Virus record (IMG/VR): IMGVR_UViG_2541047913_000003
Origin: a virus
Taxonomy: Duplodnaviria > Heunggongvirae > Uroviricota > Caudoviricetes
Strand: one strand, 5' to 3'
DNA length: 4,404 bases
Below, in pieces: positions 1 through 4,404 of this stretch. The translations under genes and the position numbers were made by a program. Position 1 is the first letter of the stretch. Each line of letters starts with the position of its first letter. The notes under the pieces are model-generated. The model saw only the letters and a program-made list of their open reading frames with translations. It was not told the origin of the DNA and searched no databases.

Positions 1-524
1 CGGGGCGGCAGATTATCCAGAATCACCGACGCCAGGAACTGCGAGGTGGTCTTGCCGTTAATGGTGACATCCTTTTCCGTCATCCATTTACCACCACGCT
101 CAAGCTGAATCAGCAGGCGGACAGACGTCGGGTTACGGTCACCCTTTGACGTGGTCTGCACCAGTGACTGCACCCCGAAGGTAACCCGCAGGCGGTCAAT
201 GTTCGCTGACGTAATGGTGCGCGTCACCGGTTTTGCCTTCGTCACTTCCACGCCCAGTACAGTTTCAGCTCCGGAGGACTCAAAGCCTTCCGGTGGTGTC
301 TGCTCCTGCTCCCCGGCACGCCAGACCGCGGTCACACCGTGTATCACGGGATTACCGTCCGTGTCCGTCAGCGGGGTTTTGTTCACCAGAATACTCTGCA
401 GGCCTTTCACCGGACCTTCAATGGGTCCCTCACCAATCGCATCAATCACGCTCATCATCTGCGTGGATTTGAGATTATCCTTCGCCTCACGCGGTGTGTG
501 CCCCTTGCCGCCCCCTTTACCCAC
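1..524 (-). CDS. J: Central tail fibre / host specificity protein J, N-terminal 174 codons (3' end runs off the window at position 1)
   Basis: Hand translation of the minus strand from 524 gives VGKGGGKGHTPREAKDNLKSTQMMSVIDAIGEGPIEGPVKGLQ...RLLIQLERGGKWMTEKDVTINGKTTSQFLASVILDNLPP with no stop to the window edge. This closely matches the lambda gpJ N-terminus as I recall it (MGKGSSKGHTPREAKDNLKSTQLLSVIDAISEGPIEGPVDGLK...). The start is GTG at 522..524, preceded by a purine-rich SD-like GGAGAGGGGGA. It is absent from the ORF track because it has a non-ATG start and no in-window stop. Confidence 0.85.
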   Translation of the reverse strand, partial: MGKGGGKGHTPREAKDNLKSTQMMSVIDAIGEGPIEGPVKGLQSILVNKTPLTDTDGNPVIHGVTAVWRAGEQEQTPPEGFESSGAETVLGVEVTKAKPVTRTITSANIDRLRVTFGVQSLVQTTSKGDRNPTSVRLLIQLERGGKWMTEKDVTINGKTTSQFLASVILDNLPP

Positions 525-566
525 TCTGTCCCCCTCTCCTGTCTGATGTCTGAATCTGTTTATGCC

Positions 567-599
567 CAAAAAACAACAGGCACCCCGGAGGATGCCTGT
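567..599 (-). terminator. Intrinsic (rho-independent) terminator-like hairpin plus U-tract on the minus strand, between the small ORF and the J start
   Basis: Minus-strand sequence ACAGGCA-TCCTCCGGGG-TGCCTGT: a perfect 7-bp stem (plus coords 576..582 pairing with 593..599) with a 10-nt loop, followed on the minus strand by UGUUUUUU (plus 568..575). On the plus strand the same hairpin has no T-run after it, so it is directional. Confidence 0.55.
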
Positions 600-600
600 A

Positions 601-696
601 TCATGACTGAATAAAAATTCTGAATATCTTCACATTTTCACAAACTGACTGTGGCGCGTATAATTTCGCTGCGTTAGTGTTTTTTTGCCGTGACAT
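601..696 (-). CDS. Hypothetical small protein, 31 aa (MSRQKNTNAAKLYAPQSVCENVKIFRIFIQS), moron-like ORF in the I-J intergenic region
   Basis: ATG at 694..696 lies 10 nt downstream of a consensus SD AAGGAG (plus 707..712, reverse complement). The 31 codons end in a TGA stop at 601..603, one nucleotide before the minus-strand terminator hairpin at 567..599. It is below the size cutoff of the ORF track and I recognise no homolog; composition is AT-rich, unlike the flanking tail genes. Confidence 0.35.
   Translation of the reverse strand: MSRQKNTNAAKLYAPQSVCENVKIFRIFIQS
637..664 (+). promoter_or_regulatory. Sigma70-like promoter on the plus strand, antisense to the tail operon (-35 TTCACA 637..642, 16-bp spacer, -10 TATAAT 659..664)
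   Basis: Read directly: TTCACAaactgactgtggcgcgTATAAT. The -10 is a perfect consensus and the -35 matches 5 of 6 to TTGACA. The predicted start is about 671. It lies in AT-rich non-coding DNA and faces a plus-strand terminator about 100 nt downstream. Confidence 0.45.
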
Positions 697-776
697 AAAA
701 AAACAACTCCTTAACACTAATCTTCATTTGTCTGAATCTCCCGCAGCTCCGCAACTCTGCGGGATTTTTTTTATTC
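671..776 (+). ncRNA. Candidate small RNA of about 105 nt on the plus strand (predicted promoter to intrinsic terminator); function unknown
   Basis: The interval between the predicted promoter and the plus-strand terminator has no ATG on the plus strand. Its architecture is typical of an Hfq-type sRNA: a 5' A/U hairpin (678..686 pairing with 697..705), an unstructured C/A-rich stretch (about 706..738, AACUCCUUAACACUAAUCUUCAUUUGUCUGAAUCU), then a GC stem and long U-tail. The 5' end is inferred, not observed. Confidence 0.35.
739..776 (+). terminator. Intrinsic (rho-independent) terminator on the plus strand, abutting the I stop codon
   Basis: TCCCGCAG (739..746) and CTGCGGGA (757..764) form a perfect 8-bp GC-rich stem with a 10-nt loop, followed immediately by TTTTTTTT (765..772) and then ATTCTTTT. 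On the minus strand the hairpin is preceded by the A-run and followed by no U-run, so it should terminate plus-strand transcripts only. Confidence 0.65.
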
Positions 777-779
777 TTT

Positions 780-1460
780 TTACCCCTGCCGCCCGATAAC
801 CACGACCTTTCCGCCCCCGCCTTCATCACGGGTACTGATGTCCTGGGATATACGGCGGGAGCCAACCAGCATTTCCCCGTAAGGCACCGGCATCGGGTTG
901 CCCTGGGCAATCATGTTGTCCAGTGAGGAAAAGTACGTGTTCTGTTTACCGTTATCCGTTGCCCGGTAATCCGGTGTTTTTGCCTTCGGGGCCAGCATCT
1001 GGGCCACACCGCCCAGAATCATGCTGGCTCCAAGTGAAAACAGCATCGTGGTGGCAGAAAAACCACCGGCTGCCAGGGCTGAACCCCATAACGCCATCGA
1101 GGCTCCGGCCGTGATGAACGACCCCACGATGGCCGCCGCCCCCAGCACAATCTGCAGTCCGCCCTTTCCGGCACCGGCCAGTCGCGGCACAATGTGGATG
1201 ACCGTTCCCTCACCCAGCTGTTCGTGAAGACGGGCGTACACCGCCTCCGGTGCCGTGTCCTCACCGGCAATACGTATCTGGTACCAGCCTTCGTTCATCT
1301 GACGGCGGAATCCGGGCACCTGTAACGACAGCGCCCGGATGGCTTCCGCTGCCGTGTTCACATACAGGCTGAGGCGGCGGCCAAATCGTTGTAAATCCCC
1401 GTGAAGGCAGATGCGTGCCAGTGGCGGTGACGCCAGACAGAATGCGTTCGTCGTTGCCAT
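780..1460 (-). CDS. I: Tail tip assembly protein I (226 aa)
   Basis: The ORF-track protein MATTNAFCLASPPLARICLHGDLQRFGRR...DNGKQNTYFSSLDNMIAQGNPMPVPYGEMLVGSRRISQDISTRDEGGGGKVVVIGRQG is collinear with lambda gpI as I recall it (223 aa), including the ARICLxGDLQRFGRR and NGKQNTYFSSLDNM blocks and the Gly/Ala-rich central segment. The position between K and J is correct. Stop TAA at 780..782. Confidence 0.9.
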   Translation of the reverse strand: MATTNAFCLASPPLARICLHGDLQRFGRRLSLYVNTAAEAIRALSLQVPGFRRQMNEGWYQIRIAGEDTAPEAVYARLHEQLGEGTVIHIVPRLAGAGKGGLQIVLGAAAIVGSFITAGASMALWGSALAAGGFSATTMLFSLGASMILGGVAQMLAPKAKTPDYRATDNGKQNTYFSSLDNMIAQGNPMPVPYGEMLVGSRRISQDISTRDEGGGGKVVVIGRQG

Positions 1461-2810: not shown

Positions 2811-3139
2811 CAGTTCACCACCTGCTTAAACTCCGCGCTGAACTCAACGCGCAACATCCCGACCCGCGCAGACCACCCGGCACAGGTCACCTTTATCTGC
2901 CGGTATGCATAGGGTGGCTTCCACAAAAATGCCTTCCAGCCACCGTGCTCTGCCAGGAACGCTTCCAGATGACGGGCCTCCTCCCGGGTCACGGAAAGCA
3001 TCACCCGGTATGTTTTCAGGTCAGCATTCAGCCCTGCCGCCATACGCTGTGAGTACCCGTCACCAAAACGCACTTCACGCACCGATGGCTGCGAGTTCAC
3101 CTCCATATCCGGTTTCACTTTCCAGCGAAAGGTTTTCAT
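2810..3139 (-). CDS. M: Tail tip assembly protein M (109 aa)
   Basis: The ORF-track protein MKTFRWKVKP...VRFGDGYSQR...LKTY.V.LSV.REEA..LE.FL.EHGGWK.FLW.PPY..RQIKVTCA.WS.RV.MLRVEFSAEF.QVVN matches lambda gpM as I recall it and has the same length. Its ATG overlaps the H stop codon (ATGA), the lambda H/M junction arrangement. Confidence 0.9.
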   Translation of the reverse strand: MKTFRWKVKPDMEVNSQPSVREVRFGDGYSQRMAAGLNADLKTYRVMLSVTREEARHLEAFLAEHGGWKAFLWKPPYAYRQIKVTCAGWSARVGMLRVEFSAEFKQVVN

Positions 3140-4404
3140 CGCCCGCTCCCCGATAACAGACCGCCATCACGCAACTGCAGCCGGAGCTCATCCTGCGCAC
3201 CTTTACGGGCCATCTCATACACCGCTTTCATCAGCTGCGGCCCGGCCTGTCCGTTGATGCCGTCGTTCTGAATCACCACGTGATTGTTCTGATTAAAATT
3301 AATGCCTTCGGCCCGCCGCATCTGCGCCGGACTTCCGGCAGCACCCACATACCCCCCTTCCGCATAGCCCCGCATCAGGCGGTACAGGTTCCCGACACCA
3401 ATCCGGCTGGTTGCCTCCTTCGTGAAGACAAACTCCCCGCGGTGGACAATCCCCGCTGGCTCATATTTGCCACCGGTTCCCGTAAATCCCCCGGTCGCGA
3501 AATGGAAGTTCGCCGCCGCAGCCTGAATGGCCGTCCCCGTGGAAGCGGATGCGCCACCACCGAAAGCACCACCAATGGCGCTGCCGATACGCCCGACAAT
3601 CCTCACCATCGCCTGCTTCAGAAAAATCTCTGTCAGCATGGAGAGCACGGAACGGGTGAAACCACGCCAGTTCTGTTCGCTGCCGGTCAGCATCGCTGCC
3701 ATATTCTGTGCAATACCGTCAAAGGTCTGCGTGGCCGCGCTTTTAACCTGCGAAAAACTGTCCGTCGCACTTTCCGCCCACTCGCCCCAGCCGGACTTCA
3801 GACCCGCCATCCAGCTTCCACGAAGCTGCTCCTCCGCAGACCAGGTGTTCTTCAGTGCAGATGTGGCCTTCGCCAGCGCATCCGGATTATCACCGTACAC
3901 GTCACGAAGGCGCTGCTCTTCCGACTCCCGCTGCGCCTGACGGTCGGTGAGGCCGCGGGCTTTTGCGCTGATGGCGGCCTGCTTCGCGCTCTGCTGCTGT
4001 TCAAACCGCGCCGCCTGCTGTGCCAGCTCATTCAGCCGTTTCTGGTGTTCAACCTTGTCGCCCAGGTCAGCCAGCTGGCGTTTGTACTCCAGCGTCTCTT
4101 TCTCATGGGCCAGCAGGGATTTTTCCTGCTCAGATAACTGCCGTTTCGTGGCGGCCTCTTTCAGGACCACATACTGATTTTCCGCTTTCCATAAATCCCG
4201 GCGCTGCTGGCTGATTTTTTCATTCGCACCGGCATGCTTTTCCAGCGTCAGGAGCTCGGTTTCAAGCGCCAGCATGGCTGCATGCGCCCGGTCTTCCTGG
4301 CGCTCACCGGCAGACACCTTCACACCGGACGGCTTTTTCTGCGTCGACTCATAATCCTTTTTTGCCGACGCCATCAGCGTGTTGTAATCCGCCTGCAGGA
4401 TTTT
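3136..4404 (-). CDS. H: Tail tape measure protein H, C-terminal 422 codons (5' end is beyond the window at 4404)
   Basis: The frame is open from the window edge to the TGA stop at 3136..3138; the ORF track shows only the part from an internal Met at 4374. The protein has a long charged, coiled-coil-like segment (QQRRDLWKAENQ...EQEKSLLAHEKETLEYKRQLADLGDKVEHQKRLNELAQQAARFEQQQ), a Gly/Ala-rich segment (GRIGSAIGGAFGGGASASTGTAIQAAAANFHFATGGFTGTGG) and a conserved C-terminal region, consistent with lambda-family tape measure proteins. It sits immediately upstream of M. Confidence 0.9.
   Translation of the reverse strand, partial: KILQADYNTLMASAKKDYESTQKKPSGVKVSAGERQEDRAHAAMLALETELLTLEKHAGANEKISQQRRDLWKAENQYVVLKEAATKRQLSEQEKSLLAHEKETLEYKRQLADLGDKVEHQKRLNELAQQAARFEQQQSAKQAAISAKARGLTDRQAQRESEEQRLRDVYGDNPDALAKATSALKNTWSAEEQLRGSWMAGLKSGWGEWAESATDSFSQVKSAATQTFDGIAQNMAAMLTGSEQNWRGFTRSVLSMLTEIFLKQAMVRIVGRIGSAIGGAFGGGASASTGTAIQAAAANFHFATGGFTGTGGKYEPAGIVHRGEFVFTKEATSRIGVGNLYRLMRGYAEGGYVGAAGSPAQMRRAEGINFNQNNHVVIQNDGINGQAGPQLMKAVYEMARKGAQDELRLQLRDGGLLSGSGR

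Follow-up and report, generated by a model that had tools for sequence, protein, structure and literature searches.

Does the spacer between the tail genes I and J of a lambda-like prophage carry a gene of its own, read against the direction of the late operon? The question is raised by a 4,404-nucleotide stretch of virus record IMGVR_UViG_2541047913_000003 (hereafter, the window), which represents a lambda-like prophage tail module with the minus-strand gene order H, M, L, K, I and the start of J. Gene H lies at 3136-4374+, the tail assembly gene I at 780..1460 (stop codon at 780-782) and the 5' part of the tail tip gene J at 1..527 (GTG start at 527-525, translation MGKGGGKGHTPREAK..., annotated as gpJ), preceded by a ribosome-binding site at about 533-540. 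The I-J spacer of the window measures 252 nt (528-779), compared with 60 nt in phage lambda, where it holds no sRNA element; the unit described below therefore sits in an insertion relative to lambda. A stretch identical to the window was found in the prophage adjoining aspS in E. coli 2015C-3121, and the RefSeq annotation of that copy comprises protein genes only, with no feature in the I-J spacer.

A first-pass annotation had proposed that the spacer encodes a prophage-borne, independently transcribed trans-acting sRNA of the Hfq type, antisense to the tail operon and expressed in the lysogen, a description that matches its homologues in the same spacer, PasB and EcOnc22-24. We consider it highly probable that positions 611-772 form a self-contained, moron-like cassette in the lambdoid I-J spacer, an allele of the PasB/EcOnc22-24 sRNA family acting in trans via Hfq. 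For the homologues, others have shown that a transcript is made, how long it is, that it depends on Hfq and which mRNAs it partners with (PMC8550237, PMC4104026). By the proposed mechanism, a sigma-70 promoter at 637-664 would fire in the lysogen, opposite to the late operon, and yield an RNA of roughly 87-102 nt ending at the hairpin and U8 terminator at 739-772. Hfq would probably bind the U-tail and the (ARN)n motif at 699-707, and the segment 708-727 would pair in trans with mRNAs of the host and of islands, in many cases at or close to their ribosome-binding sites, with a presumed regulatory effect on those mRNAs. This diverged allele, which carries no annotation, belongs to an already known sRNA family and is not the discovery of a new RNA.

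A predicted transcription unit antisense to the tail operon

The promoter scan identified a plus-strand sigma-70 promoter at 637-664, which comprises a -35 hexamer TTCACA (637..642) and a -10 hexamer TATAAT (659..664) separated by a 16-bp spacer, matches 11 of the 12 consensus positions and points away from the direction of the late operon. Across 500 dinucleotide shuffles of the window, promoters with at least 11/12 matches arose at 0.012 per shuffle, and any such promoter in 1% of shuffles, so that the near-consensus rightward promoter of the first-pass annotation is borne out. Most alleles share the TTCACA hexamer, with TTCTGT or TTTGCA in some classes, and the -10 hexamer is mostly TATAAT among 49 alleles, the others having AATAAT, GATAAT or TATCAT. 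The BP-4795-type alleles combine the weak -35 TTCTGT with the -10 TATCAT, indicating that promoter strength differs within the family.

Immediately 5' of the -35 hexamer lies a conserved AT-rich block (611..636, plus strand) that holds the sequence TCTGA-N6-TCACA at 619-634. It forms the left edge of the conserved module, beyond which the allele classes diverge, and is near-identical in the window, E2348/69, BP-4795, 1720a-02, PhiR12_1 and Sakai Sp11/14/15. The IMG/VR sample was retrieved using this very block and hence cannot show its conservation. The block may represent an UP element or a regulator site.

At the other end of the unit, a plus-strand Rho-independent terminator (739..772) is composed of an 8-bp stem (739-746/757-764; six of the eight base pairs are G-C), a 10-nt loop that differs between alleles, and a U8 tail (765-772). 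The first reading had placed such a terminator right by the stop codon of I, and the U-run indeed ends 7 nt short of that codon, the sRNA and gene I being convergent. From promoter to terminator, the predicted plus-strand RNA is about 102 nt long (671..772) and antisense to the late tail operon, its putative start being G671, 7 nt after the -10 hexamer. On the opposite, late-operon strand, outside the sRNA and just upstream of J, a terminator-like hairpin with a U-run (566..599; 10-bp stem with six G-C pairs) recurs at roughly one locus in two and shows a single compensatory change, from C-G to U-A.

The interval 671-776 contains no plus-strand ATG, as had been noted before. A 40-codon frame starting with GTG (677..799, plus strand) exists in the window and was rejected as a coding sequence, the GTG being present in 14 of 42 alleles and the transcript lengths falling into all three classes modulo 3.

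Relationship to PasB and EcOnc22-24

Five prophage sRNAs of EPEC E2348/69 were detected by RIL-seq and confirmed by Northern blotting (Pearl Mizrahi et al. 2021, PMC8550237). One of them, pathogenicity-associated sRNA B (PasB), is encoded in prophage PP6 of EPEC O127:H6 E2348/69, at NC_011601 positions 1466343 to 1466261 on the minus strand (83 nt; Table S6, PMC8550237), its ends having been set from RNA-seq coverage and Northern size. Gene I and gpJ are both plus-strand genes in that genome, the former with its end at 1466255 and the latter with its start at 1466496. PasB hence occupies the spacer separating them, on the strand opposite to the tail genes, and stops 6 nt from I. The window is 85% identical to the E2348/69 I-J spacer and 87% identical to the PasB RNA over 78 nt of the 83-nt PasB. 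The two elements share the I-J slot, the antisense orientation, the terminator stem and the U-tail, as well as a near-identical promoter block and first 20 transcribed nucleotides and the CUCCUU and AAUCUUCAUUUGUCUG blocks. They differ by three substitutions in the 20-nt seed stretch (UUAACACUAAUC in the window vs UUCACAUUGAUC in PasB), by another variable segment after the U-run, by 3 extra nt before the terminator and by the loop.

The longest word shared by the window and PasB is 15 nt, and for this reason a blastn search with word size 28 and the 83-nt PasB query did not find the window allele. The same word size was used in the survey of Zhu, Shabalina and Storz (2026 preprint), in which PasB was described as having just a few nucleotide differences. 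This setting likely explains the low PasB diversity of that survey, although the family is diverse.

PasB has the profile of a canonical trans-acting Hfq sRNA and not of a sponge. Loss of hfq lowers its level (log2 fold change -6.8 and -2.4), PasB was RNA2 in about 99-100% of the chimeric fragments in RIL-seq, and its 37 partners included 30 in coding sequences or 5'UTRs, 4 in 3'UTRs or intergenic regions, and 0 sRNAs (PMC8550237). Almost all PasB fragments were joined to core-genome partners, with an accessory-genome share of 0.5-2%, and PasB was more active in the non-activating condition (PMC8550237). The partners include a PP9 gene junction, the napF 5'UTR, map, yhhX, hflX and the fabR-yijD junction, and further caiF, rplX, bfpB, espC and the tolC 5'UTR (PMC8550237).

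The second set of homologues, EcOnc22/23/24, is a homologous trio from prophages Sp15 (Stx1), Sp14 and Sp11 of EHEC O157:H7 Sakai (Tree et al. 2014, PMC4104026), which showed Hfq-CRAC peaks and a ~85-nt Northern band that was destabilised in an hfq mutant (Table S2, PMC4104026). The reverse complement of the 33-nt Northern probe shared by the trio matches the plus strand of the I-J spacer of Sp15, Sp14 and Sp11 exactly over 23 nt, while the remaining 10 nt, as extracted from the PDF, match none of the three copies. The Sakai spacer element aligns with the window, and the CRAC peak, once corrected for offset, spans the A-rich region through the terminator. Like the window element, EcOnc22-24 lie in the I-J spacer in the same orientation, with the AAUCUUCAU motif, the terminator and a homologue of the promoter block; their Hfq binding, length of about 85 nt and Hfq dependence are known. 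They differ from the window in the -10 hexamer (AATAAT), in the -35 region, in a shorter leader (91 nt predicted for the RNA) and in the seed core (CCAUAACGUUAAUC).

Since the window is homologous to both, PasB and EcOnc22-24 form, on sequence comparison, one family. We found no paper connecting PasB with EcOnc22/23/24: the table of Pearl Mizrahi et al. has no EHEC homologue entry for PasB (PMC8550237), the preprint of Zhu, Shabalina and Storz on Pas sRNAs mentions neither the EcOnc names nor the promoter, and the one further paper found to name EcOnc22, a review, lists the targets of EcOnc22-24 as unknown without a link to PasB.

Searches against RNA family models were silent on the element. 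The Rfam/Infernal search that the first-pass annotation had suggested was run with cmscan on the whole window against all of Rfam 15 (E <= 1), and it returned no relevant family, the only hits being two chance snoRNA matches at 405-462. Rfam holds the anti-sRNAs AgvB (RF02702) and AsxR (RF02703), according to the Zhu preprint. These RNAs are 51-60 nt long and lie as convergent pairs downstream of PR', at a moron site (Tree et al., PMC4104026). They resemble the window element in being prophage-encoded and Hfq-binding and in having ARN motifs, an intrinsic terminator and a variable pairing region on a conserved scaffold. In contrast to it, they act on core sRNAs (GcvB, FnrS), and they show no similarity to the window in sequence or by covariance model. 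Identity with AgvB or AsxR was ruled out by the I-J site, the length of ~87-102 nt and the lack of a match to RF02702/RF02703 (~42-nt 3' scaffold), and the caution with which the first reading had mentioned these two RNAs was well placed, as the locus and size are different and their Rfam models miss the window. HnrS (EcOnc10/11/12), a multicopy prophage sRNA repressing hha (PMC13502914), is likewise a multicopy Hfq sRNA of lambdoid prophages; it is transcribed from a promoter of its own, ends at its own terminator and acts on a host mRNA at the ribosome-binding site. Identity with HnrS was also ruled out, given its location in the late-gene region of Sp9/Sp10/Sp12, its length of 66 nt and its unrelated sequence.

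Homologues of 630-776 were detected at 3798 places in 1786 of 5426 complete E. coli genomes, the carriers usually having several copies, and none of the 30 matches listed for these genomes overlapped an annotated feature. The phage collection contributed 137 records, mostly Stx-converting phages, and a 21-mer of the upstream block was present in at least 120 IMG/VR contigs. A scan of species-representative genomes with this 21-mer gave mostly chance matches, of which that in E. albertii alone looked genuine. Two small contigs carrying the 21-mer are labelled Streptomyces and Asaia and are probably contamination. The allele set comprises 49-53 distinct alleles, with sub-analyses performed on 42 or 33 of them. 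Synteny is well preserved: gene I ends 9-14 nt beyond the U-run in 119 of the 123 fetched loci, a distance of 84-269 nt separates the conserved block from the J start upstream of it in 118 of 123, and the position in the I-J slot, antisense to both genes, holds for the window, E2348/69 and Sakai.

Predicted transcript ends, Hfq contacts and pairing region

Promoter geometry predicts transcripts of 102 nt in the window (start at G671), 98 nt in E2348/69 and 91 nt in Sakai, and the ~85-nt Northern band of Sakai fits the last value reasonably well. For PasB, whose 5' end was placed using RNA-seq coverage and the rough size of the band, the annotated RNA begins 15 nt downstream of the promoter-predicted start, on the final U of the U-run (about 686 in window coordinates). 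The PasB-equivalent stretch, as annotated in E2348/69, thus aligns with 686..772 on the plus strand (87 nt here, 83 nt there). The offset between 671 and ~686 reflects either imprecise coverage or processing at the U-run. The U7 run at 680..686, which is kept as U5-U9 in all alleles, would then be a possible processing site yielding the shorter 5' end. A start at exactly 671, as put forward in the first-pass annotation, follows from the promoter only, and the coverage-based end of PasB does not agree with it. Calibration with the AgvB probe shows the CRAC coordinates of Tree et al. to differ from those of NC_002695.2 by ~135-143 nt, and a CRAC peak is not a transcript end, so the start of the RNA is not fixed from those coordinates.

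The interval 671-776 folds with -21.1 kcal/mol (z = -2.74 against shuffles). The minimum free energy structure pairs 673-681 with 713-721 and contains no U7/A7 hairpin, and part of the stretch that had been described as single-stranded and C/A-rich is accordingly paired. With 33 alleles as input, RNAalifold kept nothing but the invariant terminator, in which no covariation was found, the stem being invariant in the sample and this invariance partly imposed by the sample filter. Of the fold envisaged at first, the terminator was retained across alleles, whereas the 5' A/U hairpin is absent from the predicted structure and not conserved, and the fully single-stranded C/A stretch did not hold up either. 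The helix 673-681/713-721 was paired in 81% of cells across alleles, compared with 33-43% in slid controls, and 12 cells had double changes vs 4.1 in shuffles. Folded individually, 13 of the 42 alleles predict it at P > 0.5, and we therefore do not claim it as a feature of the family.

An (A-R-N)3 motif, AAAAACAAC, lies at 699..707 on the plus strand. Although the run in the window allele alone is not significant (P about 0.07), 39 of 42 alleles carry an (ARN)n motif with n of at least 3 at this relative position even though its sequence changes, with n=5 in E2348/69 PasB and 3 in the window. ARN motifs are sites for the distal face of Hfq (Tree et al., PMC4104026). Positions 699..707 are a likely contact for the distal face, and the terminator region (739-772) is a likely proximal-face site; the combination of ARN motif and U8 tail fits an sRNA that would contact both faces ("class II"-like). 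The C/A-rich stretch of the first-pass annotation would then be partly Hfq site and partly seed.

The seed-equivalent region, UCCUUAACACUAAUCUUCAU, was placed at 708..727 (plus strand) by homology to the pairing stretch of PasB. No target motif was reported for PasB by Pearl Mizrahi et al. (PMC8550237), and Zhu et al. proposed a PasB seed from conservation only. We mapped the seed with eight of the highest-count RIL-seq target fragments, taking the best local duplex over 24-nt sliding windows of PasB; these windows, together with a random control, replaced full-length RNAduplex, which gave unrealistic whole-molecule duplexes and was dropped. All eight best duplexes fell on PasB nt 37-56, counted from the promoter-predicted start (UCCUUCACAUUGAUCUUCAU), compared with 21% of 150 random 220-nt E. 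coli segments placing their best site on this seed; the mapping relies on simple duplex energies and on eight targets of the E2348/69 allele, not of the window allele. The duplex with napF is near-perfect over 16 bp, and yijD contains an exact 11-mer match (AAUGUGAAGGA) at its ribosome-binding site. The stretch opens with an anti-Shine-Dalgarno-like CUCCUU, and several of the target sites are at gene starts.

The seed of the window allele (708-727, UCCUUAACACUAAUCUUCAT) differs from that of PasB at 3 of 20 positions, which makes a different target set probable. When the window allele was tried on the eight PasB targets, the best duplex was off the seed in six cases and weaker in the other two, again suggesting that its targets are probably not those of PasB. 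Among 33 alleles, the seed core ranks with the segments that vary most, with 20 variants and 1.05 bits per column, whereas its flanks are conserved (0.52 bits for CUCCUU and 0.15 bits for AAUCUUC). The promoter block, the GCGUUA leader, the U-run, the ARN site, CUCCUU, AAUCUUC and the terminator are all kept as a scaffold around a hypervariable core of 6-8 nt; leader positions 7-9 are equally variable and partly co-vary with the core. Different alleles thus probably recognise different mRNAs.

A bolder and rather speculative extension, which we regard as possible without favoring it, is that the family is a variable-seed cassette that retargets with each prophage, some of its transcripts, that of the window included, keeping their seed masked until the first ~15 nt have been lost at the U-run. 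Unmasking of the seed by cleavage at the U-run would explain the 15-nt gap between the promoter-predicted and the coverage-based 5' ends. If this were true, each lambdoid prophage would retarget its own set of host mRNAs.

Alternative roles and the significance of the family

The alternative that survives best, and which we nevertheless judge unlikely, is that the RNA is chiefly a cis-antisense regulator, pairing with the I-J spacer of the late mRNA or causing transcription collision, so that RNase III cleavage or damped expression of J and downstream genes, in the lysogen or upon induction, would be its main effect and any trans targets secondary. About 100 nt of perfect complementarity to the late transcript would allow such pairing, and the hairpin that roughly half of the loci carry ahead of J hints that transcription across the spacer is managed. 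The I-J slot and antisense orientation, fixed in 119 of 123 loci, can be read in the same sense, but descent within a conserved tail module explains the fixed position equally well. Moreover, the RNA covers neither the J ribosome-binding site (about 533-540) nor coding sequence, ending as it does 7 nt before the I stop codon, and the many mRNA partners of PasB in RIL-seq act in trans and are almost all outside the prophage.

A role as an anti-sRNA or sponge appears very improbable. On this reading, a core sRNA with a GU-rich seed, such as GcvB, would be sequestered by the C/A-rich stretch posing as its mRNA targets, in the manner of AgvB. The stretch AAAAACAACUCCUUAACAC is indeed C/A-rich, and the CACAACA motif of AgvB and the ARN motifs of the anti-sRNAs are similar to it in composition. 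Pairing of this stretch with a GU-rich sRNA seed, as had been speculated at the outset, finds no support in the homologue: no sRNA occurred among the 37 partners of PasB, while GcvB and other core sRNAs had dozens of partners each in the same data set. The element also lacks sequence or Rfam similarity to AgvB and AsxR and differs from them in genomic site and size, and its A-rich part is better explained as the conserved (ARN)n Hfq site.

There is also little to suggest that the signals are fortuitous or the remains of a dead element, with a relic promoter and terminator and no stable RNA from the window allele. The element has no RefSeq annotation, as a relic might, but its promoter match is very unlikely to arise by chance, at least 49 alleles and a third of the complete E. 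coli genomes share the cassette in conserved form, and two diverged alleles, those of E2348/69 and Sakai, are expressed and Hfq-bound. Least probable of all is a protein-coding or type-I-toxin-like pair, with the RNA antisense to the ribosome-binding site and start of a small minus-strand frame of 31 codons (696..601) that follows a strong AAGGAG (712..707) and has counterparts annotated as hypothetical proteins in PhiR12_1 and 1720a-02, because most alleles are cut to 18-19 codons without an ATG or lack the stop context, the starts differ, an in-frame TAA interrupts the allele of E2348/69, for which the RNA is validated, the peptide lacks a hydrophobic helix, and the AAGGAG needs no explanation beyond being complementary to the CUCCUU that the sRNA conserves. 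[quoted passage not shown]

The trans-acting Hfq sRNA of the I-J spacer, which we prefer over these readings, was already documented in EPEC and EHEC. What the present analysis adds is the union of PasB and EcOnc22-24 in one family, and the finding that this family, present in about a third of complete E. coli genomes, is far commoner than the published PasB survey suggests. Having no Rfam model, the family keeps being missed by annotation pipelines. The core of the one pairing stretch to which the RIL-seq partners point is among the most variable parts of the RNA, and look-alike prophages with similar tail genes may therefore regulate different host mRNAs.

Gene I and related copies of the spacer element

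The longest open reading frame of gene I spans positions 780-1460 of the minus strand and begins with an ATG at 1460 (226 aa), whereas the RefSeq call in identical sequence is a 193-aa protein that starts at 1361. This disagreement leaves the start of gene I ambiguous. Comparison of two loci from the current Sakai RefSeq record NC_002695.2 (L151 and L154) with the EcOnc coordinates of Tree et al. 2014 (Table S2, PMC4104026) showed that the published positions lie ~135-143 nt below those of the current record, an offset that holds around 1.94-2.90 Mb. Mapping of the EcOnc RNAs onto NC_002695.2 therefore requires a correction. The spacer is identical throughout in all three Sakai copies (Sp11, Sp14 and Sp15). 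The full element, from the conserved AT-rich block upstream of the -35 to the terminator, is also present on a 3.4-kb contig filed under Streptomyces flavalbus (L016), and a match limited to the 21-mer from that block occurs on a 546-bp contig filed under Asaia platycodi (L007). Both contigs, assigned as they are to genera with no relation to E. coli, most likely represent E. coli or phage contamination of these assemblies.

Variable islands of the sRNA and the opposing small ORF

In the alignment of sRNA alleles (A3), the two most variable short islands are three leader positions (columns 7-9, window 677-679) and the core of the seed (columns 50-55, window 713-718). These islands co-vary in part as a helix would, with A-U/G-C and U-A/C-G exchanges, and could form a seed-masking stem in some alleles; in many alleles, they do not pair with each other. 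The minus strand carries a 31-codon ORF in window 601-712 (ATG at 696-694, stop at 603-601), preceded by a perfect AAGGAG (712-707), which is the complement of a conserved CUCCUU in the sRNA. In PhiR12_1 and 1720a-02, comparable ORFs have been annotated as hypothetical proteins. Across the alleles, the 31-codon ORF is not conserved.

Candidate signals upstream of the sRNA

A plus-strand sequence, TCTGA-N6-TCACA (619-634), the right half of which, TCACATTT, is perfect, resembles a CRP site. Its centre lies 44.5 nt ahead of the promoter-inferred start G671, a spacing that is not canonical for either class I or class II. Levels of PasB, the homologue in EPEC E2348/69, are higher in LB-type than in DMEM-type conditions. 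The site is a candidate, and the likeness could be coincidental. On the late-operon (minus) strand, a strong terminator-like hairpin at 566-599, consisting of a 10-bp stem followed by UUGUUUUUUGG, is located between I and J, ~40 nt ahead of the start of J. About half of the related loci have this structure, with one compensatory change (C-G to U-A) observed among them; loci of the other allele class have a flank unrelated to that of the hairpin-bearing class. This hairpin might block non-antiterminated transcription before it reaches J and the genes past J.
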